A stretch of 64,000 nucleotides of DNA from Lentisphaerae bacterium GWF2_50_93. Its GTDB lineage: Bacteria > Verrucomicrobiota > Lentisphaeria > Victivallales > GWF2-50-93. The stretch covers positions 28,802 through 92,801 of the forward strand of contig MHBI01000056.1 of NCBI GenBank assembly GCA_001804815.1, read 5' to 3'. Shown piece by piece: positions 32,355 to 55,087 of the stretch; position 1 is the stretch's first letter; every line of letters begins with the position of its first letter. The notes under the pieces were generated by a model. The model was not told the DNA's origin. It worked only from the letters and a program-made list of their open reading frames with translations, and searched no databases. A program made the position numbers and the translations under genes.

Positions 32355-32419
32355 TATTTACTTTTGCGCGCAATATGCTAGTTTTTAAAGGTTCACTAAA
32401 TTATAAACTGTATTTGATT

Positions 32420-34042
32420 ATGAATATTTCAAACATTACTGGTTCCGATAAGCGATTTTTCATCATAGTGGCGTCCTGTCTCTTGCTTCTTTCCGCCTTC
32501 CTGCATTTCTGGAAGATAGGGGAAGTACCCAACGGATTCTATGCGGACGAGAGCTCAATAGGGTACAATGCATGGTGCATAGCCGAGACCGGAGCTGATG
32601 AATATGAAATAAAATATCCGGTCTTCTTCAAATGCTTCGGCAATTATCATGACCCGGTAATGGTGTATTTCCTTGCGCCGCTGATGAAAATATTCGGGCC
32701 TGAAAAATGGGTTGTCAGGTTCCCAAGTGCATTATTTCATCTTCTTGCCTCGATAGCCTTCTTCTTCCTTGCGGCAAAATATGCGAGTAACAGATGGATA
32801 TGCCTCGCCGGAGCCTTTGTTTTTTCGACGCTTCCATGGATCTTCCCGGTAAGTCGTGTTATGATGTCGGGATATACGGCCATGCTTCTTGGTATAATAG
32901 CAGGCTGGTATTTCCTCATGCAGGCCTTCGGTAAACGATCAGTTGGATTCGCCGTTGCATCAGGAATCAGCTGGGCGTTCGCGATGTATGCGCACAATAT
33001 CGGAAGACCGATGACTGCGGCAATCCTTGTCTGCTTTGTTCTAGCTATGAATGTGCTTCTGATAAGGAGATGGAAGGTATTCCTTGCCTTTCTTGCGGCT
33101 TTTGCAGGAGCTCTTGTACCCATGATTGCCTCGGTGATCAACAATTACGAAAGCATGACGAGCAGGTTTTCGACTTTGAAGGTGTGGGCTGGAAGCAGCG
33201 GGATTCCGGAAACTGCTTCCAGGATGGTTGACAGGTATCTTGAATATTTCAGCCCCGCATTCCTTTTTATCAACGGCGATTCAAATCTCAGGCACAATTC
33301 TGGCGCATCAGGCGAACTGTATGTCTTCATGGCTCCTTTCATAATCGCCGGGTTCTACTGTTTCTACAAGGGGTTCAGGAGGAATCCTTTTTTGAGGTTT
33401 GCACTTTTAGGAATCCTCGTCTACCCTCTGGCGGCCGTACTGACAATTGATCATATGCACAGCATGAGAGCGCTCAATGGGGTTGTATTCTGGAACGTTT
33501 TAGCCGTGATCGGAGCTGGATGCCTGTGGCGAAAACGGAATGTCATTTTCTACAGGATTGTTCTTTATGCGATGCCGGTTGTTTTCATCTTTGAACTGAC
33601 GGCCTACATGTCGGATTATTTTGGAAAATATCCTGAAAGGTCAAGGCTTGCTTTTGCAGCTCCTCTTATCGAGGCATTTGAATATTCATTTAAGAAATTA
33701 GAACCCGGTGAAACGTTGTATGTCTCCGCATCATCGATACCGCAGAAGATAAATGTCGAATTCAAGCCGTTCTGGTATATGTATCTGCTGTTTTTTGGAA
33801 AAGTACCACCTTCAATATACCAGGCCAAGGGGCTTCCCATGGATTATATATGTGCATATCAAGGGCAGCCTTTGAAGAAAGGAATTCTTGTTAGAAACAA
33901 TATTGTCAGCTTTAAAGATGGCAACGGGGTTGTCCACTCGCTATTGAATGACGAGAAAGTCCCTGTGAATGGTGTGTTGATCCAAAAGTTTCCGATCATG
34001 CCAGGAGAAAAAGTGTTTATAGAGGTATATCGCATTAAATGA
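32420..34042 (+). CDS. GT-C fold membrane glycosyltransferase, ArnT/PMT-like (paralog 1 of 3)
   Basis: About 11-13 hydrophobic segments. First-loop motif FYADESSIGYNAWCIAETGADEYEIKYPVFFKCFGNYHDPV (DE motif). C-terminal soluble domain. Clear paralogy to 34952-36559 and 40383-42005. Confidence 0.65.
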   Translation: MNISNITGSDKRFFIIVASCLLLLSAFLHFWKIGEVPNGFYADESSIGYNAWCIAETGADEYEIKYPVFFKCFGNYHDPVMVYFLAPLMKIFGPEKWVVRFPSALFHLLASIAFFFLAAKYASNRWICLAGAFVFSTLPWIFPVSRVMMSGYTAMLLGIIAGWYFLMQAFGKRSVGFAVASGISWAFAMYAHNIGRPMTAAILVCFVLAMNVLLIRRWKVFLAFLAAFAGALVPMIASVINNYESMTSRFSTLKVWAGSSGIPETASRMVDRYLEYFSPAFLFINGDSNLRHNSGASGELYVFMAPFIIAGFYCFYKGFRRNPFLRFALLGILVYPLAAVLTIDHMHSMRALNGVVFWNVLAVIGAGCLWRKRNVIFYRIVLYAMPVVFIFELTAYMSDYFGKYPERSRLAFAAPLIEAFEYSFKKLEPGETLYVSASSIPQKINVEFKPFWYMYLLFFGKVPPSIYQAKGLPMDYICAYQGQPLKKGILVRNNIVSFKDGNGVVHSLLNDEKVPVNGVLIQKFPIMPGEKVFIEVYRIK

Positions 34043-34070
34043 ATTCAGACACAATTGCATAGGCGACAAA

Positions 34071-34853
34071 ATGACATTTCCACATTCAGCTCAGGACAAG
34101 AAGGCAGAAATTGAATTTTTCAACAGCTTTGCAGGACCGCAGGGGTATGATGTGTTTGATGCTGAGAGCAAGGAGAGGCTTGTAGGCGAGTGCCTAAAGG
34201 TCCTCTCTTCGGTCAGGGAGCCGGGGAAGGGTATGATTTTTGCGGATTTGGGATGCGGATCCGGCGTCTTTACTGATATCTTGGAGAAAAGGGGATTCAC
34301 GGTGGTCGGAGTGGACTTGAGCCATAAGATCCTTCAGGCAGGGAAAAAGAGCTATGGTTTTGACTTCGTCAACGGGGATGTCGAATTCCTCCCGTTTAAA
34401 GACTCGAGCATCGACTTCATCATGTTCAGTGGGATGCTCCACCATCTTCCCGAAAAGAGCCTCTGCGCGGCTGAAGCTTTCAGGGTGCTGAAGCCGGGAG
34501 GGGTGTTCGTCGCCTTCGATCCTAACAAGCAGAATCCGTTCATGTGGCTCTACAGGGATATCAGTTCACCTCTCCACAGCCAGAAGGGCGTGACCAGGAA
34601 CGAATGTCCCATCAGTGCAGCTGAAGTCGAGGAAGTCTTTGGCAGGCACGGATTCAAGATGAAGATAGAATATCTGTCGGGCTTGCACTACAAGGCCATA
34701 GCGAGTTCGCTTCTGCGCCCCCTTCTGCCGCTATACAATTTCCTCGATGCGGTGATTTTCAGCTTCAAGTTCATGAGGAAGCGCAGATCCTTTATAATCA
34801 GTGTCGGCCAGAAGCCCTCTAATCTCAAGGCAGTTCCAATAGGTTGCCATTAG
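34071..34853 (+). CDS. Class I SAM-dependent methyltransferase
   Basis: Motif I FADLGCGSGVF, and motif post-I/II VVGVDLS...FIMFSGMLHH...LKPGG. Confidence 0.85.
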   Translation: MTFPHSAQDKKAEIEFFNSFAGPQGYDVFDAESKERLVGECLKVLSSVREPGKGMIFADLGCGSGVFTDILEKRGFTVVGVDLSHKILQAGKKSYGFDFVNGDVEFLPFKDSSIDFIMFSGMLHHLPEKSLCAAEAFRVLKPGGVFVAFDPNKQNPFMWLYRDISSPLHSQKGVTRNECPISAAEVEEVFGRHGFKMKIEYLSGLHYKAIASSLLRPLLPLYNFLDAVIFSFKFMRKRRSFIISVGQKPSNLKAVPIGCH

Positions 34854-34951
34854 GCAGCTGTTTTGACGAAGAGTGCAATTGTTGATTTTCCCTCATCCAC
34901 GTTCTATGTTAAATAAAAAATGGACAGATCAACCAGCTTGCTTATGAAATA

Positions 34952-36559
34952 ATGAGATTTAAAAAAATATATATGTGGACGGCTATTCTTCTATGCCTGC
35001 TGTCAATCGCACTGCATTTTTACAGGATAAGGACAATTCCGCCGGGACTCTCAATCGATGAGGCTGCGGTCCTTTACAACGCTTACTGCATTGCCGAGAC
35101 CGGAGCCGACGAACATGGAAAAATCCTGCCTCTCTACTTCGAATCCTTTGGCGATTATAAAAACCCATTGAAAATATATCTGACAGTACCCGTCTTGAAA
35201 ATCATGGGCTTCTGCAGCGAGGCTCCCAGGATAATCAGCAGCCTATTCCATCTGCTTGCGAGTTTCGCATTTTATTTCCTGCTGAGGTCGCAGTCTAGGA
35301 ATAAATGGATCTGCCTTTCAGGCGCCTTCATTTTCTCCGTGCTCCCATGGGTGCTCCCATTGAGCAGGGTTGGACTGGGATTCACAATAATGCTTTTCAT
35401 GTATATTGCCGGATGGTACTGCCTGAACATGATGTTCCGTGGCAATAAAAACACGTTTGCCATACTTTCCGGTTTCTTCATCGGCATGGCTTTCTATTCT
35501 TCTCATGTCGGGCGGATGGCATCTCCGATGTTCATACTTCTGCTTTTTATATCATACAACCGCCTGCTGATCAAAAGATACAGGCAGATTATCGCTTTTC
35601 TGGCGGCATATTCAATGGTGCTCCTGCCGTTCCTGGTCTCATTTCTTGCAAACACGGAAATGATGAACCGCTTTTACCACGTTAACCTTTTCAGTGCACC
35701 AAACAGCTCCCAGTTCAGCATTTTGGAAATGCCTTCCAGATATCTCTCCTATTTTGGCTATGACTTCCTGTTCTTCACTGGTGATGGCACGTTACGCCAC
35801 AACATTGGCACCGGCGAACTTTTCCTATTCCTAATTCCACTGATATTATTTGGAATATACCAAGTCCTCAGGACGGCAATGAAAAACCCCAATGCTAGGT
35901 TCCTCGCCATTAGTTTTCTCTTCTATCCCATCGCGGCTATTATCACTACAGGTGAAATAAACTGCACAAGGACCATGCAGGGTTCTGTAATATGGATGCT
36001 GATTTCGATGCTCGGGCTGGCCTATCTCTGGTCACATAAAAAGAAATATGAGATTCTTATTGCCATCGTACTGATTTTTGGAACTATCGAGATCCCGTAT
36101 TACTTCTACAATTATTTCTATATCTATCCTGAAAGGCCTGAAACAAGATTTGCCTTTTTTGCTCCATTCACCGATGCTTTCAAAGAGGCCTTTTCCAGCT
36201 TGGGCACCAATGAGACCCTCTATATCTCCAAGACAGTTTCACCTCTGCCTATAAATATCAGAAATTTTAATGAGAAATTCCATGACGACTTCTACATCTA
36301 TTTACTGGTATATGGCAAGCTTGCACCGTCCGCCTATCAGGAAAATGGGATTTCAGGTGATAATTTCAGCATATACGAAGGCCGTATTAAAAAATCAGGC
36401 ATGCTGATCACGTCAGATTCATTTCTCATATTCAAACCAGGTGGGCAATACGAGCTATGCAAAAACATTGAACCCATACCTGACGGCGCCCTATTACTGA
36501 AGGAAATACAAGTTAATCCTTACAAGAAGTTGCTTGTCTATAAGTTGAAGCAGCCATGA
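34952..36559 (+). CDS. GT-C fold membrane glycosyltransferase, ArnT/PMT-like (paralog 2 of 3)
   Basis: LSIDEAAVLYNAYCIAETGADEHGKILPLYFESFGDYKNPL; polytopic; the same architecture as paralogs 1 and 3. Confidence 0.65.
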   Translation: MRFKKIYMWTAILLCLLSIALHFYRIRTIPPGLSIDEAAVLYNAYCIAETGADEHGKILPLYFESFGDYKNPLKIYLTVPVLKIMGFCSEAPRIISSLFHLLASFAFYFLLRSQSRNKWICLSGAFIFSVLPWVLPLSRVGLGFTIMLFMYIAGWYCLNMMFRGNKNTFAILSGFFIGMAFYSSHVGRMASPMFILLLFISYNRLLIKRYRQIIAFLAAYSMVLLPFLVSFLANTEMMNRFYHVNLFSAPNSSQFSILEMPSRYLSYFGYDFLFFTGDGTLRHNIGTGELFLFLIPLILFGIYQVLRTAMKNPNARFLAISFLFYPIAAIITTGEINCTRTMQGSVIWMLISMLGLAYLWSHKKKYEILIAIVLIFGTIEIPYYFYNYFYIYPERPETRFAFFAPFTDAFKEAFSSLGTNETLYISKTVSPLPINIRNFNEKFHDDFYIYLLVYGKLAPSAYQENGISGDNFSIYEGRIKKSGMLITSDSFLIFKPGGQYELCKNIEPIPDGALLLKEIQVNPYKKLLVYKLKQP

Positions 36560-36620
36560 CCGACCATCATTTGCGCCAGCCATTGCCTCGCAGATCTTTG
36601 AAAGTGTCGAGAGGCAAGAC

Positions 36621-36649
36621 TTGACTTAGCATGTATTCCGAATTATGTT
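36621..36649 (+). promoter_or_regulatory. Putative sigma-70 type promoter (TTGACT - 17 nt - TATGTT)
   Basis: The hexamers lie about 55 nt upstream of the ATG at 36703 and are preceded by a ttgcctc...gaggcaa hairpin. Confidence 0.4.
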
Positions 36650-36702
36650 GGCTCTCAGCTGATAAAGGAACCCTCTAACTAAAATTCATCCGACTGGAAC
36701 AC

Positions 36703-38523
36703 ATGGTTGTTATTTTTCTTTTCGCCGGGATTATCCTGGGATTTTTCCTTCCTGGTTATTTCATAAACAGGATACTTGGCGGGAAAAATGATTTCGGAGC
36801 TGACTTCATAGTATCCACTGTCATTCTCTTCACTGTGATATTCTGGGCCGGCATATCGGGATTTAAGCTGAATGTCGTCAACATCGGCCTGCTGCTCCTC
36901 CTGCTCAACGCCCTGCTCTTTGTCTACTGTTCAATAAAAAGAAAAAAGCTTGACATGGAATATCAGGTGTTGCGCCTGGGCAATTTTGAAAGAGTAATTC
37001 TTCTTCCCATAGCGCTGCTTTGCCTGTTGATGCTTTTAAGAAGTTCTTTTTTTCCGCTGCCGATTGGCGATCAGATATTCAGGTGGTATTTCCTTCCCGC
37101 AAGAATGCTTGAGACCGGATCCTTCAGTTATTATCCACCGTTTACGGGTGCTGACTACGAGAAATATTTCTTCACTGATTCATTTCCGCCGATAGTATCA
37201 TTTTCGTATTTCTGGCTCTTCTCCCTTTATGGAAAGGCCGAGGTTCTCCTTGTATGCATACCTGTGACAATTCAGTTTGCACTAATCTTCGTCTTCGGAT
37301 ACAGGCTTGCATCAACCCTGTTCAATTCTGAGAAAGCTGGATTCTTTGCAATCCTCATGATAGGCTCATCAACACTTCTTTTCTATTCCGTACTGCTGTC
37401 ACAGGAAACGGGCATAACAGCCCTCGCAACACTGGCATTAGTTTATTTTCTTGTCAGGAACAGAGAATGCACAACTGGTGATGTGCTACTTGCCGCCTTC
37501 GCCTCCGCGCTCGGAGCCCTCTCCAGGGAATATGGTTGTGTTTTCATACTCTGCGGACTGATCGTAATATTATGGAGGAAAATGCCTCTAAGAATACTTG
37601 TCTGCTATCTCACCCTCTCATTTCTCCTCGTTGGACCTTGGTATATAAGGAACATCATCATAACAGGAAATCCGGTATACAGCAATCCCATAGGCAACAT
37701 TTTCCCGGTAAATCCGGTGCATGTCGGCATCCTTAGTGCATACAGTGACACCATAGGCTTGAAAAGCTATATGAATATCAATGTGTTGAAACCCCTAGCT
37801 GAAGGACTTGTATTCGCTCTTGGAATTCCTTTCTTCATTGGAGTTGCAGCCGTATTGATGATGTTCCGCAAACTTGGATACCTGCTACTCATTTCCATCA
37901 TTTTCCTGTCCCTGTGGATTTATTCGATATTTGTGCCGGCTGGAATTTTCCATTCCATGAGGATACTGACACCTGCGATAGCTCTGCTCTATGTCTGTGC
38001 TGCAAGCATCTTTGATATGCTTTCCGCAAAATACAAAAACTTCTACAGGATCGCAGCCATAGTCCTTTCAGCCTCATGCTTCCTAGCCTTGTTCCTGGAC
38101 ATCTTCGTCCCCTGGAACCCTTTCAGGCTGAGCTTGAAGGAATGGGAGATTGCTTCAGGCATTAAGAAACAGTGGGACATATCCCAAGAGATATATCTTT
38201 TCATCGAACCAATCCCCAACGGCTCGAAAGTCCTTTCGGACTGCGCCAATTTCTATGCAGTCCTTGAAGCCGACAAGGAGAACAGCAAGGACATAAAGCT
38301 TGTTTCAGTATACAGCCCGGATGTCAGATTCCTCTTCGACAAGAACACTTCATTCGAAGAAGGTGCGGCAGGGCTGAAGAAACTGGGGATCAGCTATGTG
38401 CTCATAGGACAGAAGAACAACCTGGACTTCATCTATTTCAGAAAATTTCCGTTCTTTGAGAAATGCAGTTCCTCCGGGCGGCAGATAATAAAGGGATTGC
38501 TGTATGAGCTGCCCTCAGATTGA
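36703..38523 (+). CDS. Large polytopic membrane protein, possibly GT-C-like
   Basis: 606 aa with more than 12 hydrophobic segments and a C-terminal soluble domain. It sits inside the glycosylation island. It shows no clear paralogy to the ArnT-like trio. Confidence 0.5.
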   Translation: MVVIFLFAGIILGFFLPGYFINRILGGKNDFGADFIVSTVILFTVIFWAGISGFKLNVVNIGLLLLLLNALLFVYCSIKRKKLDMEYQVLRLGNFERVILLPIALLCLLMLLRSSFFPLPIGDQIFRWYFLPARMLETGSFSYYPPFTGADYEKYFFTDSFPPIVSFSYFWLFSLYGKAEVLLVCIPVTIQFALIFVFGYRLASTLFNSEKAGFFAILMIGSSTLLFYSVLLSQETGITALATLALVYFLVRNRECTTGDVLLAAFASALGALSREYGCVFILCGLIVILWRKMPLRILVCYLTLSFLLVGPWYIRNIIITGNPVYSNPIGNIFPVNPVHVGILSAYSDTIGLKSYMNINVLKPLAEGLVFALGIPFFIGVAAVLMMFRKLGYLLLISIIFLSLWIYSIFVPAGIFHSMRILTPAIALLYVCAASIFDMLSAKYKNFYRIAAIVLSASCFLALFLDIFVPWNPFRLSLKEWEIASGIKKQWDISQEIYLFIEPIPNGSKVLSDCANFYAVLEADKENSKDIKLVSVYSPDVRFLFDKNTSFEEGAAGLKKLGISYVLIGQKNNLDFIYFRKFPFFEKCSSSGRQIIKGLLYELPSD

Positions 38524-38533
38524 CGGCTGAAAA

Positions 38534-40087
38534 TCATGTGTCAAATATTTTGCGGTAGAAAGAGATAAATAAAGCGCTAAAAGCAATGACGATTAGAAGC
38601 AAGGGGGCAAGGCTCCATAGCCCCTTCAATCCAAGAAGCATTCCCATGTTCCAGGAAGTATATTCCTTTATTGTATCCCAGTCAGGATTGAGCGCCTGGT
38701 ATCTTATGGGGCTTTTGAAGATGCTTAGTTCACCTCTTAAGAAATGCCCGTAGGTCCAGCCGAATAGTGGATTCCTGGTCGTCTCAACGGTGCCAGGGGC
38801 GGCTTTCTCAGCTGATGCACTACGTTCGAAGTTTGCCTTGTCGATAGAGGAATCCAGCGGGACTGTGCATTCCGTGGAAACAGCTGCTATTGCAAGCATG
38901 TTCAATATCGAGCATGAAGCAAGGAGAATTGCCGTATATCTCCAAATCCGTCCATCTGGTATTTTTGCAAGCACGAGAATCCAGAAGGGGATTGAGCATA
39001 TCTGATATCTCATGTAAGTTGATGCACCTCCATGCCAGGCGTTAAAGGACGAATTGACAACGACGATCAGGATGATCGAGCCAGCGCAGAGCCATAAAAG
39101 CCGGTCTTTGCTGTTTGTTTTAAACCATATTAAGAAGCCTGCGGCAGACAAGAGGAGCAATGGTGTTGAAAGAAACATTCCCCGTTCAAGACTGAATAGA
39201 ATCCTGTATATAATATCAATTGAAACTGTTCCTAAGGAACCAAGAAGTTTATTGTCTTCGGTAAATAGGGGGTTGGTCTTTGATATTGACAAATTGACAA
39301 TTGACCCGAAACAGGCATACTGGTAAGCTATCAAGGCAAGAAGAGGGGCCAGTCCGCCGGCAATATAGTGGAAAATCATTTTTTTCTCTGTAGTTAAAAC
39401 ATAAATAAATATGGTCACGGCGAATATTCCGGCAAGATAGTCTGTTATCGTCGCGCACCCAATCCAGAAACCGGACAGAAAATAGTTCTTGTTCTCAGTA
39501 TTTAGGATACTATACAGGGAAAAGACAAGGAATGCCGCTGCAGTTGTGTGACCCCATATCTGGACGGAGTACGGGAAGAGAGGCGTGCAAAAGACTAGAA
39601 ACAGTGAATACATGAGGGATTTCTTTTCCGGACATCCGAAAAAAACGCTGAAAATCCTGAACATCAAGACTGCTGCAAATGCTAAAGGGATGATTGAAAT
39701 AAACAAGTTGATAAGATATGCATCGAAAATTTCAACGAGCGGGTTGTTGCAGTCTATGTCGAATATGTTCTGGACATGAAATATTATGAAATAGACGGGG
39801 ATCCCGAGGAAATGTGTCCCCGGCGCCTTGTTGGAATAAAAGTTGCCATTGTTAAAAGCCCAGTCGTCGGTATTGATGCCTCTGACGGGTGAAACTATGA
39901 ACCGGTTTATTTTGAATGTGTTTGTTTCGCTGAACCCCGTCTCGACAAATGAATAAATGACATCGAGCCTTGAATTCTGGCTCGATCCTCCGTTGGCATA
40001 GAAGTATCCGATGACAACTATAACAAAAAGAAAAATCGTCCATTCCGTCTTGCTTCTGAATTTAAAAATGGGAATTAAGTTATGCAT
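38534..40087 (-). CDS. Large polytopic membrane protein, possibly GT-C-like
   Basis: 517 aa. The first loop, DDWAFNNGNFYSNKAPGTHFLGIPVYF, resembles the D..(Y)..K(P/A)PG loop of GT-C enzymes. It is on the opposite strand to the rest of the island. Confidence 0.5.
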   Translation of the reverse strand: MHNLIPIFKFRSKTEWTIFLFVIVVIGYFYANGGSSQNSRLDVIYSFVETGFSETNTFKINRFIVSPVRGINTDDWAFNNGNFYSNKAPGTHFLGIPVYFIIFHVQNIFDIDCNNPLVEIFDAYLINLFISIIPLAFAAVLMFRIFSVFFGCPEKKSLMYSLFLVFCTPLFPYSVQIWGHTTAAAFLVFSLYSILNTENKNYFLSGFWIGCATITDYLAGIFAVTIFIYVLTTEKKMIFHYIAGGLAPLLALIAYQYACFGSIVNLSISKTNPLFTEDNKLLGSLGTVSIDIIYRILFSLERGMFLSTPLLLLSAAGFLIWFKTNSKDRLLWLCAGSIILIVVVNSSFNAWHGGASTYMRYQICSIPFWILVLAKIPDGRIWRYTAILLASCSILNMLAIAAVSTECTVPLDSSIDKANFERSASAEKAAPGTVETTRNPLFGWTYGHFLRGELSIFKSPIRYQALNPDWDTIKEYTSWNMGMLLGLKGLWSLAPLLLIVIAFSALFISFYRKIFDT

Positions 40088-40382
40088 AGATAATCAGTCA
40101 AACACGGTTCGTCGAAATTATTTAAAGGGCTTATAGATGAAAACGGATGGGGATTGTGATTCCCGTCTTAGTGAATGATAATCCTGAGATGGGGAAGAAT
40201 CAAGGTGTTTCAGCCATAATCAAGCCTTTTTTCATTCCGGTTTCGGAGTCAAACAGCCATGATCCTGATTTGAATCTGTCGTGCTTGATAAACTACTCTC
40301 AAGCGATTAGCTTTTAGGATTGATATTTTTTTTCGAGCATCACGCGTGCCTGATTTGTCAATAAAACCCTGCCGGGATTAAT

Positions 40383-42005
40383 ATGAATGCAAAATCAGTT
40401 GCAATAAGACAAGTTTTAAGGAATCATGTTTTCCTGTATCTTCTTGCAGGCTTTCTGCTGTTTGCAACATGCCTTCTGCATTTCTGGAACCTGGAAAACA
40501 TGCCGGGGGGGGTTCATGTTGACGAGAGTTCAGTTGCATACAACGCCTACTGCATTTATAAGACCGGGGCGGATGAGCATGGAACAAAATATCCATTGTT
40601 CTTCAAATGCTTTGGCAACTACCAGGATCCCGTTATGATATATTCAGCAGTGCCGATGGCAGGTCTTTTCGGACTTGACAAGGCAGCCATTCGTTTCCTA
40701 AGTGCATTATTTCACATCCTAGCTTCTGTTGCGCTGTTCTTCCTCGTTTCGAAACTCATCAGGAATAGAATGATCTGCCTTGTATCAGCTTTCACCTTTT
40801 CGGTTCTCCCTTGGCTTTTTCCCATAAGCAGGACAGGAATAGGGGGGTACATGGCCATGCTTCTGGGGATTATCGGGGGCTGTTATTTCCTATTTGATGC
40901 AATTGGCAGGAAATCAACTGTTTCATCCGTACTTGCAGGAATATTCTGGTCCTTTGCCATGTATTCTCATCATATCGGGAAACCGATGTCGGCCGTGATA
41001 CTGACTTGTTTTGTCCTAGCTTTAAATAAACGGATCATGAAACGTCTTAAAGTTTTCAGCGTTTTCATGGCCAGCTTCGCATTTTTACTTGTTCCAATGG
41101 CCATAAGTTCACTGATCCGGCCCGAAAGCATGACCAGCAGATTCAATAGTATAGCTCTTTGGAGGGAATCTTCGACATGGATTGAAATAGCCACGGGGAT
41201 GCTTCAAAGGTATATTGAATATTTTAGCTTCGACTTCCTTTTCATTGCAGGCGACAGGGATCTTCGCCACAATGTTGGAGCAGGGGAGCTCTACCTGTTT
41301 TTTGTCCCATTGCTTGTCGCAGGCGTTTACGTCATTGTAAAAAACTTCAAGGGAAACCCGTTTTATCGTTTTATTTTCCTCTGCCTTTTGACCTATCCTG
41401 CCGCTGCGGTGTTGACTATAAGCCATTATCATAGTACCCGCTGTATGAATGGTGCTCCGTTCTGGTGCATTGCTGCAGCCATAGGTCTAAACTATTTTTG
41501 CCAGGAAAGGAAGAAATATGCAGTTGTTCTAATAGCGGTGATATTACTTGCCACGTTTGAGATCCCGTCATACATGTCCAGATATTTTGGCAGATACCAG
41601 ATCGATTCAAGGGAGTCTTTCAGCGCGGGTTCCATCGAGGCCATTCAGAAATCAATCGGACATCTTGGGAAGGATGAAACTCTATACATCTCAAGGTATA
41701 TGTTCTTCCCGGAGGAAATGAAGCCTGGATTTAAGCCTGAGTTCTACACCAACATCCTCTTCCTCGCTAAAATCGATCCGGTTGTGTATCAGCGTGAAGG
41801 CCTGCCTAAGGAAAAAGTGCGGCTCTACGATGAGGAATTCGACAGGCCGGGTATTTTCCTCACTCTTGACAGCTTGTATCTGCTGGACGAAAATAATAAC
41901 CTCAGGATTAGCAGGGATTTTGAAAAGCGACCAGGCAAACTGAAACTTATTGAAAGAATTCCTACGCCGTCAGGTATAAATTTCGAGATTTATCGTGTCT
42001 ATTGA
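40383..42005 (+). CDS. GT-C fold membrane glycosyltransferase, ArnT/PMT-like (paralog 3 of 3)
   Basis: VHVDESSVAYNAYCIYKTGADEHGTKYPLFFKCFGNYQDPV. It is collinear with paralog 1 over the whole length. Confidence 0.65.
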   Translation: MNAKSVAIRQVLRNHVFLYLLAGFLLFATCLLHFWNLENMPGGVHVDESSVAYNAYCIYKTGADEHGTKYPLFFKCFGNYQDPVMIYSAVPMAGLFGLDKAAIRFLSALFHILASVALFFLVSKLIRNRMICLVSAFTFSVLPWLFPISRTGIGGYMAMLLGIIGGCYFLFDAIGRKSTVSSVLAGIFWSFAMYSHHIGKPMSAVILTCFVLALNKRIMKRLKVFSVFMASFAFLLVPMAISSLIRPESMTSRFNSIALWRESSTWIEIATGMLQRYIEYFSFDFLFIAGDRDLRHNVGAGELYLFFVPLLVAGVYVIVKNFKGNPFYRFIFLCLLTYPAAAVLTISHYHSTRCMNGAPFWCIAAAIGLNYFCQERKKYAVVLIAVILLATFEIPSYMSRYFGRYQIDSRESFSAGSIEAIQKSIGHLGKDETLYISRYMFFPEEMKPGFKPEFYTNILFLAKIDPVVYQREGLPKEKVRLYDEEFDRPGIFLTLDSLYLLDENNNLRISRDFEKRPGKLKLIERIPTPSGINFEIYRVY

Positions 42006-42067
42006 TGGATCTTTATTCGTTGACGCTTGAGAAATTCAAAACACTAACGTAATAGGACCGCCGAATA

Positions 42068-42787
42068 ATGGCTGATGCATCAAAACGAGTATGTCTGGTT
42101 GTACCGTGCTACAATGAGGCCGACCGGTTGAATATCGGTGAATACAGGAGATTCTCCGGCGGCATACATTTCCTTTTTGTCAACGACGGCTCCTCTGACG
42201 CCACCGGGGAATTGTTGGAAAAGGAAGCCACGGGATTCGCATCGGTCCTGAGTCTGGAAAAAAATTCAGGAAAGGCTGAGGCGGTGCGGATGGGCATGAT
42301 GCATCTTAAAACGATGCCAGTTTTCGAGGAGATTGAGTTCGCCGGATTCTGGGATGCCGACCTCGCCACGCCCTTGGAAGAGCTTGACGGAATGCTTAAA
42401 TTCACTGATGGCATCTGCCCGGCCGCCGATGCAGTCTTTGGAAGCAGGATATACCGTCTGGGAAGCGTCATACAGCGCAGCAGGACACGGCATCTGATAA
42501 GCCGTATTTTTTGTTTCCTGTTCAGGACATTGTACGGAATTGAAACATATGATTCGCAGTGCGGTGCGAAGATTTTCAGGAAGAACGTGCTCGAAAAGGC
42601 CTTTGCCGAACCTTTTATTTCCAGGTGGATCTTTGATGTGGAGATCATCCTGAGGCTGAAAGGCAGTATCCTGGTGGAATATCCTGTAAGCCGCTGGGCC
42701 GACATAAAAGGTTCGAAGGTGATGAAACTTAACAATATCATAGTCATTTCGCGTGATGTTTTCAGGCTGTGGAAGAAATATGTCTAA
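42068..42787 (+). CDS. GT2-family glycosyltransferase of the polyprenyl-phosphate sugar synthase type (GtrB/ArnC/Dpm1-like)
   Basis: VVPCYNEADRL, FVNDGSSDATGELL, and the DAD motif (FWDADLATP) in a 239-aa soluble protein. Confidence 0.75.
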   Translation: MADASKRVCLVVPCYNEADRLNIGEYRRFSGGIHFLFVNDGSSDATGELLEKEATGFASVLSLEKNSGKAEAVRMGMMHLKTMPVFEEIEFAGFWDADLATPLEELDGMLKFTDGICPAADAVFGSRIYRLGSVIQRSRTRHLISRIFCFLFRTLYGIETYDSQCGAKIFRKNVLEKAFAEPFISRWIFDVEIILRLKGSILVEYPVSRWADIKGSKVMKLNNIIVISRDVFRLWKKYV

Positions 42788-44516
42788 AATCAAGATCCCA
42801 ATATTCGCAGACATAGCCGTGATCCTGCTGGTGTCGCTTGCAGCGCTTTCCGGCCTGATCCTGTCAGGCAGCTGGCCCCAGTCGCACGACGGCCTGAGAT
42901 ATCTATGCCATCTCGACCAGTTCAGGGATGCCTTCAATTCCGGAGTCCTGTATCCAAGATGGATGCCGAACTACTATGGTGGCTACGGATATCCGATATT
43001 CCTCTTCTACCAGCCGGGATATTTCTTTCTCTCGCTCCTGTTCACCTTTTTCACCTCGGACATCCTCGCCGCAAGCTATGCTTCAAATGTCGCGATGTTC
43101 TTCATCGGAGGCACTGGCGTCTATCTGCTGGTCATGAAGATAGCCGGCGACCGACTGGCCTCCCTGTTCAGTTCCATCATGTTCCTTCTTACACCATATG
43201 TATATGTCAATCTGTTTGTAAGAGGGGATCTGAGTGAACTCCTCGCCATGTTTGTCGTTCCATGGCCGCTGTATTTCCTGCTTAGGCTGAAAGACAGGAT
43301 AACTGGCAATACGGCATTGGCCCCTTCAATGCTGGTTCTCTCGCTGATGCTTGCGGCGGTTGTGTACAGCCATCCATTCACGGCCATGTTCTTCTATCCT
43401 CTTTTCTGCGTGTTCATGCTTCCAATGTGCCTGGACATGGACAGGAAGCAGGCATTGAAATTCCTAGGGGCAGGTTCAACAGCACTGCTTTGCGCAGTGA
43501 TTTTCAGTTCTCCATACTGGTTCACGGCGTTTCAGATGAAGAAGTACGTTGATTACAATCCTGCGGTGAGCGGATTTTATTCAGCTGAAAACCACATTGT
43601 ATATTTCCAACAGCTCTTTTCCAGGTTCTGGGGATTCCTGGGATCCGAACCAGGAATTTCGGACGGCATGTCCTTTCAGCTGGGCCTGCCCCACTTCATT
43701 CTCGCCGTTGCGGGTTTCTGGCTGAACAGGAGGAGTAAATTCTTCATCACCGCTTTTTCTCTTTATATCTTGTGTATTGTCATGATGACTCCGGCGGCGT
43801 CGCTGCTCTGGAAGAATATTCCTCTCATGAATTTTGTCCAGTTCCCGTGGAGGCTTTTAAGCGTGATAGTGCTTCTGCAGATCCTCTGTATTTCGGGAAT
43901 TTGGAAACTGCGGGGAGTCCTGGAGTCAAATGTGAGATTCTGTTCAGCCCTAGTTGCATTCCTTCTTTTAACCCTCCTCTGGAACGCAAATGAGTTCCAG
44001 TTCATAAGGTTCAAATACGTCATCAGGGATGCGATCGAATTCCACAGGCAACTGCGGCTCGAGAAAATGGAAGTCTATGAATCCTTCAACGAGTTCGTGC
44101 CAAAGACCGCAACATCCTATCTGCCTTCCGCGGCGAGGGGGAACGGTCCGATGCTTTCAGTCAGCGATCCGGCCTGCAGGATCTCCGAGTATCCTGAAAG
44201 CAATCCTCATCACATGCGCTACAGCGTCTCAAGTGAAAGACCACAGGTAATCATGGTCAACCAGCTGTATTTCCCCGGCTGGAAAATAATTCTTGGAGAC
44301 AAGGATATCGATGGCTCCACCCTCCTGGAGGATATTTCAAAGGATGGCAGGATCCAGATTGAAATTCCTGCAGGTGAAAACCAATATCTGGAGGCTTTCT
44401 ATGAAGGTCCTCCGGGATGGTATGCAAGGAATGTATTTATAGGGATTGTCTTCTTGGCCATGCTTGTTGCAATCATGCTAGAGCACAGGAAAATCCTGAA
44501 GGAAACTGGAAGTTGA
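42780..44516 (+). CDS. Large polytopic membrane protein (GT-C-like candidate) with a C-terminal beta-rich domain and a terminal TM helix
   Basis: SHDGLRYLCHLDQFRDAFNSGVLYPRWMPNYYGGYGYPIFLFYQPGYF, then about 12 hydrophobic segments. The ATG at 42780 overlaps the GT2 stop by 8 nt. Confidence 0.55.
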   Translation: MSKIKIPIFADIAVILLVSLAALSGLILSGSWPQSHDGLRYLCHLDQFRDAFNSGVLYPRWMPNYYGGYGYPIFLFYQPGYFFLSLLFTFFTSDILAASYASNVAMFFIGGTGVYLLVMKIAGDRLASLFSSIMFLLTPYVYVNLFVRGDLSELLAMFVVPWPLYFLLRLKDRITGNTALAPSMLVLSLMLAAVVYSHPFTAMFFYPLFCVFMLPMCLDMDRKQALKFLGAGSTALLCAVIFSSPYWFTAFQMKKYVDYNPAVSGFYSAENHIVYFQQLFSRFWGFLGSEPGISDGMSFQLGLPHFILAVAGFWLNRRSKFFITAFSLYILCIVMMTPAASLLWKNIPLMNFVQFPWRLLSVIVLLQILCISGIWKLRGVLESNVRFCSALVAFLLLTLLWNANEFQFIRFKYVIRDAIEFHRQLRLEKMEVYESFNEFVPKTATSYLPSAARGNGPMLSVSDPACRISEYPESNPHHMRYSVSSERPQVIMVNQLYFPGWKIILGDKDIDGSTLLEDISKDGRIQIEIPAGENQYLEAFYEGPPGWYARNVFIGIVFLAMLVAIMLEHRKILKETGS

Positions 44517-44518
44517 AC

Positions 44519-45307
44519 ATGGAACTGTTTGATACGCATTTTCATTATTATCCTGAAGACGCGGCAGTTAAGGATTATGCCGAAAAGGCCCGCAGGGCTG
44601 GGGTGAGGTATCTCCTTGCCACAGGCGCCAATCTCCTGGAAAGCAGGATAGCGAGGGATTTTGCGAACCAGAACGCAGACTGCTGGTTTTCCGCTGGTGT
44701 TCATCCTCACGGGGCGGATGCGTTCAAGGAAGACATTTCAATTTTCCAGGAGTTCATCAAGGAACCGAAAATGCTGGCCATAGGCGAGGTCGGGCTTGAC
44801 TATTTCTATGAGAATTCAGACAGGGTGTCGCAGAAAAAAGTTTTTTCCGCGTTTTCGGAGATGGCGCTTGATAATAAATTTCCTCTGATTGTCCATTGCC
44901 GTGACAAGAATGACAGCGAGGAGGCATATTCGGATTCATACGGCATCCTAGCAGATTTTTCGCGCAAAGGCGGAAGTTTTGTCCTGCATTGTTTTACTGG
45001 AACGGATGAATGGTGCAGGAAATTCCTCGATCTGGGAGCTTTTATAAGTGTAGGAGGTATTGTTACATTTCCAAAGGCGGCTAATGTCAGGCAGCTGCTG
45101 AAGATCATTCCTGATGACAGACTGCTTCTTGAGACGGATTCCCCTTACCTTGCGCCTGTTCCGCACCGAGGCAAGCGGAACCATCCGGAATATCTGGCTG
45201 TCGTGGCAAAATATGTTGCTGGACAGAAGGGCGTCACTGAGGATGAACTGGCAGGATTTACGACTGCGAACGCCTTCAAATTCTTTAAAATAAGACGCGA
45301 TTGCTGA
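44519..45307 (+). CDS. TatD-family metal-dependent hydrolase
   Basis: MELFDTHFHY..., IGEVGLDY, LIVHCRD, HCFTG and LLETDSPYL. It starts 3 nt after the previous stop. Confidence 0.85.
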   Translation: MELFDTHFHYYPEDAAVKDYAEKARRAGVRYLLATGANLLESRIARDFANQNADCWFSAGVHPHGADAFKEDISIFQEFIKEPKMLAIGEVGLDYFYENSDRVSQKKVFSAFSEMALDNKFPLIVHCRDKNDSEEAYSDSYGILADFSRKGGSFVLHCFTGTDEWCRKFLDLGAFISVGGIVTFPKAANVRQLLKIIPDDRLLLETDSPYLAPVPHRGKRNHPEYLAVVAKYVAGQKGVTEDELAGFTTANAFKFFKIRRDC

Positions 45308-46251
45308 TGGATGCAAAGGTAAACAGTTTCAAAATAACAATGAAGGCATGGCTGAATCTCCTCAGGGTGCCGAATTACTTCACCGTTCCAGGCGACGCCG
45401 TATTTGGTTATCTCATCATGAACGGGAAAATAGATTCACCGAATTTGATGTATGTGATCCTGTCAGTGCTGACCTGCTATTCATTCGGACTGATAACCAA
45501 CGACATCGCCGATCTTGAAACTGACAGACGTGAAAGGCCCGACAGGCCTCTCCCCTCAGGACTGATCAAAGTCCCGGCCGCGAAATTCGCAGCGGGTATT
45601 TCCGCTGCGGCCGCTCTTGCATTCGCATTAATGTGCGGGCCCAGGACATTCACGATTGCCATGGTGCTTCTGCTGGTAATAACTGGTTACAATAGCATGT
45701 TCAAGCATGTACAGCTGCTCGGCCCTCTGGTTCTCGCGATGTGCAGGATGCTCGGTCTCATCATGGGAGTTTTTGCGGCTCGCTCGATTGTTCTGGAGTC
45801 ATATATCATCTATCCGGCTCTCTTCTTCCTTGTGATCTATGTCTTCGGTCTTTCCGTCTCCGCCCAGGTTGAAACGCAGGAAGACAGGAAGAATACTGTG
45901 CTGGCGGGCGGATGGATCGTAATGATATCATCTCTCTTATGGATAGGCGTCGGATTTTATCTGTCTTCAAATGTCGACGATATCAGCGTCATGCAGGAGA
46001 TTACGCCGAGCATGTGCTTCGCCATCTGTCTTTCGGCGATACTTTCCCTAAGCTCGCTGAAGAACCTCATTGGGCTGCATTTGAATTACAGTCCATCGAG
46101 AGTTCCTCCTTTCATAGGTGAAAGCATAAGGAATCTAATTCTTTTCCAGGCGTCGGCATGCGCTTTTGCAGGATTCATGAATGCGGCTTTCTATATAGCC
46201 CTGCTGTATATTCCGGCCTGGATCCTTTCAAGGCGCCATTATCAGAGCTGA
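45307..46251 (+). CDS. UbiA-family aromatic/polyprenyl-phosphate prenyltransferase (integral membrane)
   Basis: NDIADLETDRRERPDRPLPSG (NDxxDxxxD motif) and about 8-9 TM segments. Its ATG overlaps the tatD stop (TGATG). Confidence 0.8.
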   Translation: MDAKVNSFKITMKAWLNLLRVPNYFTVPGDAVFGYLIMNGKIDSPNLMYVILSVLTCYSFGLITNDIADLETDRRERPDRPLPSGLIKVPAAKFAAGISAAAALAFALMCGPRTFTIAMVLLLVITGYNSMFKHVQLLGPLVLAMCRMLGLIMGVFAARSIVLESYIIYPALFFLVIYVFGLSVSAQVETQEDRKNTVLAGGWIVMISSLLWIGVGFYLSSNVDDISVMQEITPSMCFAICLSAILSLSSLKNLIGLHLNYSPSRVPPFIGESIRNLILFQASACAFAGFMNAAFYIALLYIPAWILSRRHYQS

Positions 46252-46769: not shown

Positions 46770-46985
46770 ATGAAAAATGCTATGACAATCGATAATGTTC
46801 TTGAGATAGCTCGGAAACTGCCAATCCAGGATCAGGAAGAATGCGTTTATCTCATCTCGAGGAGGATAATTGAAGAGAAACGGAAAAAGCTTTTAGTTGA
46901 GGTTCGCAAGGCTGAAACGGAATACAGTTCAGGAAAAGCAAAACGAGCAACCGTTGACGGAATAATGAAGGAAATTCTTTCTTGA
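46770..46985 (+). CDS. Type II antitoxin (partner of the RelE/ParE-like toxin)
   Basis: 71-aa ORF overlapping the toxin gene by 4 nt (ATGA). It has a charged helical C-terminus. Confidence 0.65.
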   Translation: MKNAMTIDNVLEIARKLPIQDQEECVYLISRRIIEEKRKKLLVEVRKAETEYSSGKAKRATVDGIMKEILS

Positions 46986-47263
46986 AAAGAAATCTCGTAA
47001 ATAGCCCCTCCTTTGTAAGAGCGGCTAAAAAATATATAAAGAAGAATCCGGATAAGACGGAAGATTTTAAAACAGCACTCGAAAAACTCTCCGAAAATGC
47101 ATTTGACCCTTCATTGAAAACACACAAGCTTTCTGGAATTCTTGCTGGCCGCTGGGCTTGTTCGGTCGGATATGATTTGCGGATAATCTTCAAATTCGTG
47201 GAAAGTGATGGCAGGGAAAATATTTTGCTTCTGACCGTTGGAACACATGACGAAGTGTACTGA
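46982..47263 (+). CDS. RelE/ParE-superfamily toxin (type II TA mRNA interferase-like)
   Basis: 93 aa. ...LKTHKLSGILAGRWACSVGYDLRIIFKFVE...ILLLTVGTHDEVY is the typical RelE/ParE C-terminal pattern. Confidence 0.8.
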   Translation: MKRNLVNSPSFVRAAKKYIKKNPDKTEDFKTALEKLSENAFDPSLKTHKLSGILAGRWACSVGYDLRIIFKFVESDGRENILLLTVGTHDEVY

Positions 47264-52553: not shown

Positions 52554-52666
52554 AATCGACGCCTGTCCGATTGAAAAAAAACAGCTGATATTTAATGTAT
52601 TGCAGTCTGGGAATTCCAGCCATCCCGGCGGGGATTTCCAGTTTTCCCCAACAAGAGGATCTTCTT

Positions 52667-55050: not shown

Positions 55051-55087
55051 ATAAATTCCGGCATGGGAACTCCATGCCGGAATTTAT
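55051..55087. terminator. Perfect ~16-bp hairpin between the TPR-lipoprotein gene and the ycfL-like gene; it contains the upstream gene's stop codon
   Basis: ataaattccggcatgg-gaac-tccatgccggaatttat. Confidence 0.45.

Follow-up and report, generated by a model that had tools for sequence, protein, structure and literature searches.

The chromosome of Lentisphaerae bacterium GWF2_50_93, an uncultured Victivallales (Lentisphaerota) bacterium, carries a cluster in which six polytopic membrane proteins (A1–A3, B, C and D) are encoded together with a GT2 protein, a methyltransferase (MT), a TatD-type hydrolase and a UbiA-superfamily prenyltransferase. The question that this locus raises is whether these proteins could act together on lipid-linked sugars, and which of them would provide the sugar donor. 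The reading that we favour, with moderate confidence, is that of a polyprenyl-phosphate-sugar-dependent periplasmic glycosylation cluster of the Gtr/Arn/CsbB-YfhO type. On the basis of family assignments and structural models, it most likely acts on the periplasmic side and adds sugars to an envelope molecule.

Gene layout and base composition

The genes are listed in Table 1, with positions referring to the window, that is, the whole 64,000-nucleotide stretch of DNA analysed. The coordinates and reading frames given for them in the first-pass annotation, which was made from the sequence alone, agree with our re-check.

Table 1. Features of the cluster, with positions in the window and the basis of each assignment.
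Feature	Position	Strand	Basis
A1, predicted GT-C glycosyltransferase, PMT_2 type, ~540 aa	32420..34042	+	Pfam PMT_2
MT, predicted class I SAM-dependent methyltransferase, 260 aa	34071..34853	+	Pfam Methyltransf_11
A2, predicted GT-C glycosyltransferase, paralogue 2	34952..36559	+	38% identity to A1; sub-threshold PMT, PMT_2
B, 606-aa polytopic protein, probably GT-C fold	36703..38523	+	sub-threshold PMT_2; hhalign to C family
C, 517-aa predicted GT-C-fold protein	38534..40087	-	AlphaFold2 + Foldseek
A3, predicted GT-C glycosyltransferase, paralogue 3	40383..42005	+	48% identity to A1; PMT_2 24 bits
GT2, 239 aa, candidate polyprenyl-phosphate sugar synthase	42068..42787	+	PF00535; profile vs PDB
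D, 578-aa predicted GT-C glycosyltransferase, PTPS_related (PF10131) family	42780..44516	+	AlphaFold2 + Foldseek
TatD/YcfH-type metal-dependent hydrolase, 262 aa from M35	44519..45307	+	Pfam TatD_DNase, TIGR00010
UbiA-superfamily membrane prenyltransferase	45307..46251	+	Pfam UbiA; profile vs PDB; NJ tree

The cluster comprises at least three transcription units, with one gene (C) on the opposite strand, and A3 opens the run A3-GT2-D-TatD-UbiA. Both overlaps reported earlier in this run are present: GT2 (to 42787) and D (from 42780) have 8 nt in common, and the A of the TatD stop codon TGA (45305–45307) is also the first base of the UbiA ATG (45307–45309) in the sequence TGATG, a 1-nt overlap at 45307. 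The start of TatD is probably M35 of a longer open reading frame (44519), 2 nt past the D stop, and its homologues have 262 aa. The tight packing of D, TatD and UbiA could mean functional coupling.

The island had been described as more AT-rich than the flanking housekeeping genes. This holds for A1, A2, B, C and A3 (GC 0.43–0.45, GC3 0.48–0.53, compared to a GC3 of ~0.60 in the rest of the window), but not for MT, GT2, D and UbiA, which fall within the spread of the remaining genes in the window, while TatD has a normal overall GC (0.48) but matches the low GC3 of the GT-C genes, with a value of 0.50. Family searches found no flippase, polymerase or sugar-nucleotide family in the cluster or the remaining window, in line with the first-pass annotation.

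The polytopic proteins and the methyltransferase

The three collinear proteins of ~540 aa, singled out earlier for a common first-loop motif, are indeed paralogues, with BLASTP identities of 36–48% and E values of 1e-110 to 1e-168. The DE/YNA/TGADE loop motif occurs in A1 (ADESSIGYNAWCIAETGADEY...), A2 (IDEAAVLYNAYCIAETGADEH...) and A3 (VDESSVAYNAYCIYKTGADEH...), and D43 and E44 of this loop are invariant in a 12-sequence alignment of the A family. Against Pfam PMT_2, with a gathering score of 26.1, A1 obtains 34.2 bits, A3 24 bits and B 24.8 bits, and A2 is slightly under the threshold for both PMT and PMT_2. The relatives of A1 number 7333 representatives, and hhalign relates A1 to the D and C families with 90% probability each.

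B, C and D are polytopic, and BLAST finds no similarity among the three or between any of them and the A proteins, as had been stated. B has a weak match to the NCBIfam LIC_10190 family, a hhalign match to the C family (93.9% probability, E 1.6e-7), and homologues in L004 and L006 that also match PMT_2 weakly; from the sub-threshold Pfam and profile-profile scores, it probably has a GT-C fold. The C family has no Pfam model, and C matches the NCBIfam LA_3751/LA_3752 putative GT family weakly; D75 and K87 are invariant in 63 homologues. The AlphaFold2 models of C and D have pLDDT values of 92.2 and 93.4, respectively. In the Foldseek search against the PDB, all 20 top matches of C (ArnT, ALG9, PimE, ALG3, STT3, EmbA/B, PglB, ALG6, AftA, Pmt4) and all 29 of D (AglB, STT3, AftD, PglB, AftA, Emb, Pmt4, ArnT) are GT-C enzymes, with modest scores (E 2e-4 to 4e-2, TM 0.36–0.45). 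D ends in a C-terminal beta-sandwich domain followed by a final membrane helix, and its family matches PF10131, a member of the Pfam GT-C clan (PMC7801869), in 25/40 members and GT-C_AftD in 4/40. The earlier suggestion of up to six GT-C-like enzymes is thus borne out by Pfam PMT_2 for A, the models for C and D, and the hhalign comparison of B with C: all six are GT-C-like, with a glycosyltransferase activity predicted from sequence for A and B and from the models for C and D.

MT follows A1 after 28 bp and scores 84 bits against Methyltransf_11, which confirms the SAM methyltransferase noted previously. It has no hydrophobic segment or membrane helix in its 260 aa and is predicted to be a cytoplasmic, class I enzyme. 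It is the best-conserved protein of the cluster (74–85% identity in L014, L016, L184 and L167), and the A1-MT neighbourhood is retained in relatives.

Proposed donor synthesis and the TatD-UbiA pair

GT2 belongs to PF00535, and two motifs are invariant in its family, DAD (D96-A97-D98) and D..QCG.K.FR. When the family profile is compared with the PDB, the first seven matches are all polyprenyl-phosphate glycosyltransferases and cover the complete catalytic domain, among them DPMS 5mlz (5e-18, full length), ArnC (5e-18 to 1e-16) and GtrB sll0501 (2e-14), while the next matches (7e-9) span the N-terminus only. GT2 groups with the Dpm1/ArnC/GtrB class rather than with soluble-acceptor GT2 enzymes, and this supports its proposed role as a candidate polyprenyl-phosphate sugar synthase. 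The NCBIfam scores for ArnC and PpgS (26 and 24 bits) are far under the cut-offs. No hydrophobic segment or membrane helix was found across the 239 aa, in contrast to GtrB, ArnC and archaeal DPMS, which have membrane helices.

The 8-nt GT2-D overlap recurs in the close relatives L004, L006 and L012. A GT2 orthologue (32–53% identity) adjoins a D homologue at nine distant loci (L024, L025, L038, L042, L047, L048, L050, L053 and L079) from Lentisphaerota, Planctomycetota, Omnitrophota and delta-proteobacterial/Polyangiaceae MAGs, and in L024 a GT2-Methyltransf_11 fusion adjoins the D homologue. The adjacency is not obligatory, since GT2 is missing from the vicinity of most distant D and A homologues. 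The pair resembles the csbB-yfhO bicistron (PMC5836110, PMC7389260).

TatD is a canonical member of TIGR00010 (226.7 bits, cut-off 206; Pfam TatD_DNase 233 bits), a family annotated as exonucleases. UbiA matches Pfam UbiA in its N-terminal half only (74.7 bits); it retains the NDxxDxxxD motif, but only one invariant Glu is left of its second Asp-rich motif.

The first-pass annotation had likened UbiA to DPPR synthase, and we have considered the option that a second lipid-linked donor, used by D or another GT-C enzyme, comes from UbiA together with TatD acting as a 5-phosphatase. The close spacing of D, TatD and UbiA, which stay together in every relative having the island, the preserved NDxxDxxxD motif, the resemblance of D to AftD and AftA together with the GT-C_AftD matches in its family, and the composition of known pentofuranose systems, namely a UbiA-type synthase, a phosphatase and a GT-C enzyme (PMC11127046), are all consistent with this option. 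However, the UbiA family profile matches DGGGP synthase with 4.4e-27 over 267 positions, nearly the full length, and DPPR synthase with 3e-6 over 126 positions, one third. The NCBIfam DPPR synthase models give 19–37 bits with cut-offs of 207–474 (37 bits against 207). By these values, UbiA is not DPPR-synthase-like. Furthermore, UbiA lies in a Lentisphaerota clade (28/30 NJ bootstraps) sister to ebo-linked EboC-type enzymes. TatD is directly 5' of UbiA in 10 of the 12 informative Lentisphaerota loci of this clade, and also in L094, L008 and L009 outside the tree; seven TatD-UbiA loci (L008, L009, L094, L096, L099, L103 and L120) have no GT-C or GT2 gene, and GT2-D pairs without TatD-UbiA occur in other phyla. 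The canonical TatD and the lack of an epimerase and a flippase at the locus also argue against a second donor, which we consider decidedly unlikely.

The mycobacterial arabinan locus (embCAB, aftA/B/D, ubiA Rv3806c, Rv3807c) and the Gram-negative pentofuranose three-component systems (PPPRS, MATE flippase, GT136) likewise have GT-C genes near a UbiA-superfamily gene and a hydrolase. Here, the model of D comes closest to the AglB/STT3/AftD type, UbiA is not DPPR-synthase-like, a canonical TatD takes the place of the PAP2 or HAD phosphatase, DprE1/E2-type epimerases are missing, and UbiA-TatD is conserved independently of the GT-C genes. The Lentisphaerota-wide pairing, the seven loci and the position of the clade near EboC indicate that TatD-UbiA is probably a module separate from the glycosylation genes.

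The gene order resembles that of the ebo cluster (EboA-F; scytonemin precursor export, thallusin biosynthesis), where a TatD-superfamily gene is also directly 5' of a UbiA-family gene. The pair might then be a reduced Ebo-like module making a prenylated small molecule or ether-type lipid with no role in glycosylation, in which TatD would, by analogy with EboB and EboC, be the hydrolase of the pathway. The best NCBIfam matches of UbiA, both full length, are SCO3242 (124 bits, cut-off 260) and EboC (114 bits, cut-off 250), and its nearest solved structure is an O-prenylating lipid synthase. At 14 PVC loci, an ebo-type UbiA is directly 3' of a TatD-superfamily gene of EboB type, with EboF, EboD and EboE near; thallusin synthesis depends on both eboB and eboC, and EboC farnesylates hydroxyquinolines (bioRxiv 10.64898/2026.05.21.724671). 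On the other hand, UbiA is under the EboC cut-off and in its own clade, EboD, EboE and EboF were not found within the window, and the second Asp-rich motif is reduced. TatD is of the YcfH/TIGR00010 type, on which the EboB type scores only 33 bits, and may be a housekeeping nuclease in a shared operon. We regard such an Ebo-like module as very improbable.

Conservation, proposed mechanism and relation to known systems

The whole cluster is retained between TilS and TsaB in L004, L006, L007, L014 and L016. The first-pass annotation had asked whether the UbiA-TatD-GT2-GT-C set travels together; GT2-D does so across phyla, but all nine genes share one site only within a Victivallales subclade and, by these comparisons, form three separable modules rather than one co-conserved unit. 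The A family has 2–4 copies among relatives, and C is carried by some of them only, being absent from L004, L006, L014 and L016, with a PMT-type protein in its place in L004.

This variable gene complement, the presence of several transcription units on two strands, the usually solitary full-length A orthologues of Verrucomicrobiia and Lentisphaera, the D homologues, most of which have no nearby GT2, and the MAG CAZION, where A-MT-C and A-A-GT2-D-TatD-UbiA are on different contigs, would also fit a mostly fortuitous or regulatory clustering, in which the GT-C enzymes serve unrelated pathways with donors from elsewhere and GT2-D is the sole true pair. However, five to six GT-C genes are kept at the TilS-TsaB site in relatives with proteins ~55–70% identical, three of them are local paralogues, and the five variable GT-C genes have a distinct composition in common, making this explanation unlikely.

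In the periplasmic glycosylation mechanism that we favour, GT2, judging from its family, would transfer a sugar from a nucleotide sugar made outside the locus to polyprenyl phosphate on the cytoplasmic face, probably docked on D, its translationally coupled GT-C partner. A flippase encoded outside the locus would then carry the lipid-linked sugar across the membrane, and the six GT-C-fold enzymes would put it on an envelope acceptor, which may be a glycan, lipid or protein, with distinct positions for different enzymes. These enzymes possibly also use other lipid-linked sugars. The probable substrate of MT, whose gene is closely linked to A1, is the sugar, either as such or attached to its carrier. 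TatD-UbiA would be co-transcribed with the run, yet be an older, separately conserved Lentisphaerota pair, with UbiA most likely prenylating a non-sugar acceptor by DGGGPS/EboC-like chemistry.

The locus resembles the Gtr systems and would follow the same donor logic (PMC11127046). As in GtrA/GtrB/GtrX (Shigella, Salmonella), CsbB/GtcA/YfhO (Bacillus, Listeria) and ArnC/ArnEF/ArnT, a synthase-class GT2 is coupled to GT-C; here, however, the locus has no flippase gene, the candidate synthase lacks membrane helices, six GT-C genes take the place of one, a methyltransferase is embedded, and the GT-C families are PTPS_related, the Pfam-less C family and a distant PMT_2 branch. To our knowledge, none of these three families has a characterised member, and we know of no Gtr/Arn/CsbB-like system studied in PVC bacteria, to which the host belongs. 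Mycobacterial PpgS (Rv3631) and Ppm1 have no membrane helices either, and the PpgS/Rv3632/Rv3779 and Ppm1 systems resemble the one proposed here in having a helix-less GT2 that feeds GT-C and needs a membrane partner. With 24 bits, far under the PpgS cut-off of 370, GT2 is not a PpgS orthologue, and there is no small Rv3632-like membrane protein here; D itself would be the partner.

The stable core consists of GT2-D plus MT with A1, and the AT-rich GT-C set (A paralogues, B and C) varies around it, a combination that fits a diversifying surface structure. The three local A paralogues would represent the in-place diversification of one function.

Gene layout and composition of the cluster

According to the ORF listing and translation, ten genes sit between TilS and a small toxin-antitoxin (TA) pair, after which comes TsaB. 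The first-pass annotation had pointed to an 8-nt overlap of GT2 with D and to a TGATG junction between TatD and UbiA, and both are real. Within its long ORF, TatD most likely begins at M35, which lies 2 nt past the stop of D: the Pfam domain begins there and the homologues are 262 aa long.

Genes of the cluster and its TilS border, in window coordinates
Gene	Position	Strand	Remark
TilS	30930-32354	-	borders the cluster
A1	32420-34042	+	polytopic paralogue, ~540 aa
MT	34071-34853	+	SAM methyltransferase, 260 aa
A2	34952-36559	+	polytopic paralogue, ~540 aa
B	36703-38523	+	polytopic protein, 606 aa
C	38534-40087	-	polytopic protein, 517 aa
A3	40383-42005	+	polytopic paralogue, ~540 aa
GT2	42068-42787	+	candidate polyprenyl-phosphate sugar synthase, 239 aa
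D	42780-44516	+	polytopic protein, 578 aa
TatD	44519-45307	+	hydrolase
UbiA	45307-46251	+	prenyltransferase

Flippase, polymerase and sugar-nucleotide genes, noted earlier as missing from the cluster, were found neither there nor in the rest of the 64-kb window. The remaining window genes are housekeeping ones (SecA, Der, PGI, NifS/NifU, ProRS, IspD, an RNase R-like protein, a secretin, TilS, TsaB, a PPIase and a 5'-3' exonuclease). Neither Rfam families nor tRNAs were detected in the window. Between 32000 and 47500, 35 promoter and 20 terminator candidates were obtained, compared to 23.9±5.5 and 16.0±3.9 in shuffled sequence, and neither number is clearly above expectation.

The TA pair between UbiA and TsaB is of the YafQ/ParE type (type II), with a 71-aa antitoxin candidate (46770-46985, +) that has a 4-nt overlap with a 93-aa toxin (46982-47263, +; Pfam YafQ_toxin, 35.5 bits). 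The 1-kb gap 3' of UbiA was checked for a small GtrA-like flippase and contains this pair instead. TsaB probably starts further downstream than its listed ORF, whose start (47238) lies inside the toxin gene. The UbiA-TsaB gap differs in size between the window, two relatives (~70-110 bp in L004 and L006) and a third (about 5 kb in L002), which makes the site look like a hot spot for insertions.

Elsewhere in the window, two ORFs without a Pfam match, 2944-3795 (+) and 15013-15606 (-), have low GC (0.37 and 0.40) and GC3 (0.34 and 0.42), and are possibly foreign or fast-evolving genes. Further ORFs of 200-500 aa lack a Pfam match at E≤1e-4 (55084-56604 on the minus strand, 7115-7741, 12592-13317, 20629-22144 and 24325-24951), and 52595-53233 has no Pfam or NCBIfam match at E≤1e-3.

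The stretch had also been described as an AT-rich island. The window has a GC content of 48.7%. Five genes, A1, A2, B, C and A3, fall to 0.43-0.45, and their GC3 is 0.48-0.53 where other genes have about 0.60. The values of MT, GT2, D and UbiA are normal for the window, while TatD combines a normal overall GC (0.48) with a low GC3 (0.50). The description is thus correct for the five GT-C genes and not for the whole 14 kb: the AT-rich part is the variable GT-C complement. Because only these five genes clearly deviate in composition, the reading of the entire 14-kb stretch as a horizontally acquired island was rejected; the TilS-TsaB site is, moreover, syntenic in relatives.

The polytopic proteins, GT2 and MT

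A1, A2 and A3 are 36-48% identical to each other (BLAST E-values of 1e-110 to 1e-168). The loop motif proposed for them in the first-pass annotation is found in all three alike, and across 12 aligned members of the A family its D-E never varies. No BLAST similarity was detected between B, C and D and A1-A3, or among B, C and D themselves. All six proteins have several hydrophobic segments, in keeping with the polytopic membrane character of GT-C enzymes. A1 scores above the Pfam PMT_2 threshold, with A2, A3 and B just under it. With 7333 representatives at E≤1e-3 and 378 at ≤1e-30, the A family is large; that of C is small (63 hits) and has no Pfam model. D itself has no Pfam match, and of 40 homologues 25 match PTPS_related (PF10131) and four GT-C_AftD. 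PF10131 is an uncharacterised family within the Pfam GT-C clan (PMC7801869).

Searches of PDB chains with the A1 sequence and with the A, C and D family profiles returned nothing meaningful, and the folds were therefore tested by modelling. The AlphaFold2 models of C and D, built on 40-sequence alignments, have pLDDT values of 92.2 and 93.4, respectively, and contain 11-14 long helices. In Foldseek comparisons with the PDB, the best 20 matches of C are all GT-C enzymes (probability about 1.0, TM 0.31-0.45), among them ArnT, ALG9, PimE, ALG3, STT3, EmbA/B, PglB, ALG6, AftA and Pmt4. The same is true for the best 29 matches of D, which include AglB, STT3, AftD, PglB, AftA, EmbC, Pmt4 and ArnT. 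Transporters appear far down in both lists, with probabilities <0.15. Profile-profile alignments with hhalign connect the A family with those of D and C, each at 90% probability, and B with C at 94%. Judged from alignments, D43-E44 is invariant in the A family, about 10 residues past helix 1, D75 is invariant in the C family, and in the D family a nearly invariant H36 is followed by D or E.

On account of the PMT_2 scores, the fold matches of C and D and the hhalign links, we assign all six polytopic proteins as GT-C-like, as had been proposed from the sequence; for C and D the assignment is by modelled fold, for A1-A3 and B by sequence comparison, and B is the least well supported. Two of the families, PTPS_related and the Pfam-less family of C, are functionally uncharacterised, and for the latter the GT-C fold is predicted here by modelling.

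A-type proteins are also multiplied elsewhere. Four A-like GT-C paralogues are arrayed within 20 kb in CPR (Daviesbacteria, Microgenomates, Collierbacteria) and gammaproteobacterial metagenome-assembled genomes (MAGs), and Candidatus Dormibacterota genomes carry many scattered copies (loci L215, L225, L226, L233 and L244). Victivallales are therefore not the only group with a tandem expansion of this family.

The assignment of GT2 to the lipid-sugar synthases is supported at the level of enzyme class. The seven best PDB matches of its family profile are DPMS, ArnC and GtrB (5e-18 to 2e-14, positions 6-237), with Pyrococcus Dol-P-Man synthase, ArnC and GtrB coming first and covering the whole catalytic domain, whereas other GT2 enzymes match only in the N-terminal Rossmann part, at 7e-9 or weaker. 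In the family, D96-A97-D98 (the DAD motif) is invariant and a D..QCG.K.FR motif is conserved. The protein scores under all three curated cut-offs (25.8 bits vs 529 for ArnC, 24.3 vs 370 for PpgS and 16 vs 375 for the archaeal Dol-P-hexose transferase), and it is therefore no orthologue of any named enzyme. No hydrophobic segment was found in its 239 aa, which stop just past the catalytic domain; GT2 is for this reason likened to the helix-less subtypes that need a partner.

Such a partner may be D. The loci with D homologues, 76 in all and from many phyla, include nine in which a GT2 orthologue (32-53% identity) is no more than a few kb away from D (L024, L025, L038, L042, L047, L048, L050, L053 and L079). 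TatD and UbiA are absent from all nine; distant homologues of D and A are mostly solitary. The recurrence of the pair across phyla, together with the overlap of the helix-less GT2 with D, suggests that D is the membrane partner of GT2 and also a user of its product.

MT belongs to the soluble class I SAM methyltransferases. No other protein of the cluster is as conserved (74-85% identity in relatives), and its adjacency to A1 is kept. In the Omnitrophota locus L024, a GT2 relative (32% identity) is fused to Methyltransf_11 in a 495-aa protein (8445-9932), and a D homologue follows after about 120 bp. This fusion hints that GT2, MT and D might act together. Another join occurs beside the D homologue of the Planctomycetota locus L038, where a GT2 segment is in-frame with an N_methyl/SBP_bac_10 (DUF1559) pseudopilin-like protein (6421-8937). 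This may be an ORF-calling artefact or a clue to the acceptor class.

Conservation of the locus and the TatD-UbiA pair

The nearest relatives, by both DNA and protein, are MAGs of Victivallales (Lentisphaerota). The full order, that is, TilS, the GT-C genes with MT, GT2-D-TatD-UbiA, and TsaB-PPIase, is kept in L004, L006, L007, L014 and L016 and in the shorter contigs L012, L015 and L017-L020, with protein identities of about 55-75% to the window. The GT-C genes vary: A is present in two to four copies, B in some relatives only, and C is missing from L004, L006, L014 and L016, a PMT-type protein being in its place in L004. In one MAG, an A-MT-C module and A-A-GT2-D-TatD-UbiA are on separate contigs. 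UbiA, TatD, GT2 and the GT-C genes are thus found together only in a Victivallales subclade, GT2-D and TatD-UbiA also occur apart, and the locus consists of three separable modules: the full arrangement, GT2-D and TatD-UbiA.

TatD scores 226.7 bits against TIGR00010 (cut-off 206; positions 1-252 of 253) and 233 bits against Pfam TatD_DNase, and it may be a housekeeping YcfH orthologue that merely shares the operon. UbiA matches the Pfam UbiA model in its N-terminal half only, and its best NCBIfam matches, SCO3242 and EboC, are both under cut-off (114 bits vs 250 for EboC). The first Asp-rich motif (NDxxDxxxD) is intact, while the second is cut down to one invariant Glu.

The first-pass annotation had drawn a parallel between UbiA and DPPR synthase and had allowed for a second lipid-linked sugar; in the reading that follows from this, UbiA and TatD would make such a donor for the GT-C enzymes. 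Pentofuranose three-component systems are known in which a UbiA-type synthase works with a phosphatase and a GT-C (PMC11127046), which makes the idea reasonable in principle. However, the tests go against it, and we consider it unlikely. The NCBIfam DPPR synthase models give 19-37 bits, with cut-offs of 207-474, and the family profile is far closer to DGGGP synthase (6m31; 4.4e-27 over 267 positions) than to DPPR synthase (8j8j; 3e-6 over 126 positions). Furthermore, the companions of DPPR-type systems, a PAP2 or HAD phosphatase and a flippase, are absent from the 64-kb window. UbiA is thus classed, by profile comparison, as DGGGP synthase/EboC-like and not as DPPR-synthase-like.

When 80 loci with UbiA relatives are compared, the protein joins a Lentisphaerota clade (28 of 30 NJ bootstraps), in which a canonical TatD is directly 5' of UbiA in 10 of the 12 informative members. 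Seven TatD-UbiA pairs stand in unrelated contexts without GT-C or GT2 (L008, L009, L094, L096, L099, L103 and L120). The pair predates the island and does not depend on it. In the clade of the window, TatD-UbiA is predicted from the tight spacing to be co-transcribed with D.

The other PVC relatives of UbiA are solitary or part of true ebo clusters, which have EboE (405 bits), a DHQS-like protein, a phosphodiesterase and a distant EboB-type TatD-like protein. The persistent succession of a canonical TatD and an EboC-sister UbiA across Lentisphaerota mirrors EboB-EboC and hints, by analogy, at a recurring functional pair of a TatD-fold hydrolase and a UbiA prenyltransferase. A reduced Ebo-like function of TatD-UbiA is therefore an alternative that draws on this parallel; eboB and eboC are both needed for thallusin synthesis (bioRxiv 10.64898/2026.05.21.724671). 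Compared to the ebo cluster, the locus has a UbiA under the EboC cut-off and no EboD, EboE or EboF. The genes 3' of UbiA (the TA pair, TsaB, PPIase, an esterase, a TPP decarboxylase and the 5'-3' exonuclease) are of other types and were rejected as the completion of such a cluster.

The 79 PVC loci with a UbiA relative include about 22-24 genuine ebo clusters, with the EboB-type TatD-like gene and EboC present (L104, L107, L109, L115, L118, L122, L136, L141, L147, L155, L157, L161 and others). The ebo cluster is therefore frequent among Verrucomicrobiota, Kiritimatiellia, Planctomycetota and some Lentisphaerota.

Proposed pathway and its meaning

The best-supported reading of these folds and families is a pathway of the Gtr/Arn/CsbB-YfhO type. 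GT2 would load one sugar onto polyprenyl phosphate at the cytoplasmic face, a flippase encoded elsewhere would carry the lipid-linked sugar across the membrane, and the GT-C enzymes would pass it to an envelope acceptor. The sugar is probably methylated by MT, in view of its linkage to A1 and of the GT2-methyltransferase fusion in L024. Local paralogy, variable copy number and low GC3 of the GT-C genes other than D suggest in-place diversification of a surface structure.

The locus fits polyprenyl-phosphate-sugar/GT-C systems at the level of folds, without orthology to any named enzyme. It shares a synthase and a GT-C with the Gtr three-component system, which, however, has a dedicated flippase (GtrA/SMR/MATE); none was detected in the cluster, the 64-kb window, L004 or L006. 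In some known systems the flippase gene is unlinked, as for GtcA (PMC7389260). Particular to the locus are the six GT-C enzymes accompanying a single helix-less synthase, the two GT-C families without a characterised function, the embedded MT, the lack of a linked flippase and the PVC host.

One could also imagine that GT2-D-TatD-UbiA works as one pathway: UbiA, aided by TatD, would yield a carrier or anchor of a new prenyl-linked type, such as a prenylated polyol phosphate or a polyprenyl-phospho-pentose, and the six GT-C enzymes would make a PVC-specific lipoglycan on or from it. We regard this as very unlikely. If true, it would be the Lentisphaerota counterpart of mycobacterial arabinan/LAM assembly, with the TatD-fold enzyme as phosphoesterase.

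Current understanding is not overturned by these findings. To our knowledge, systems for envelope glycosylation have so far not been characterised in any member of Lentisphaerota, and the locus provides a defined syntenic set of one candidate lipid-sugar synthase and six GT-C enzymes. The recurrence of GT2-D across phyla, combined with a variable AT-rich GT-C set, suggests a diversifying surface structure.
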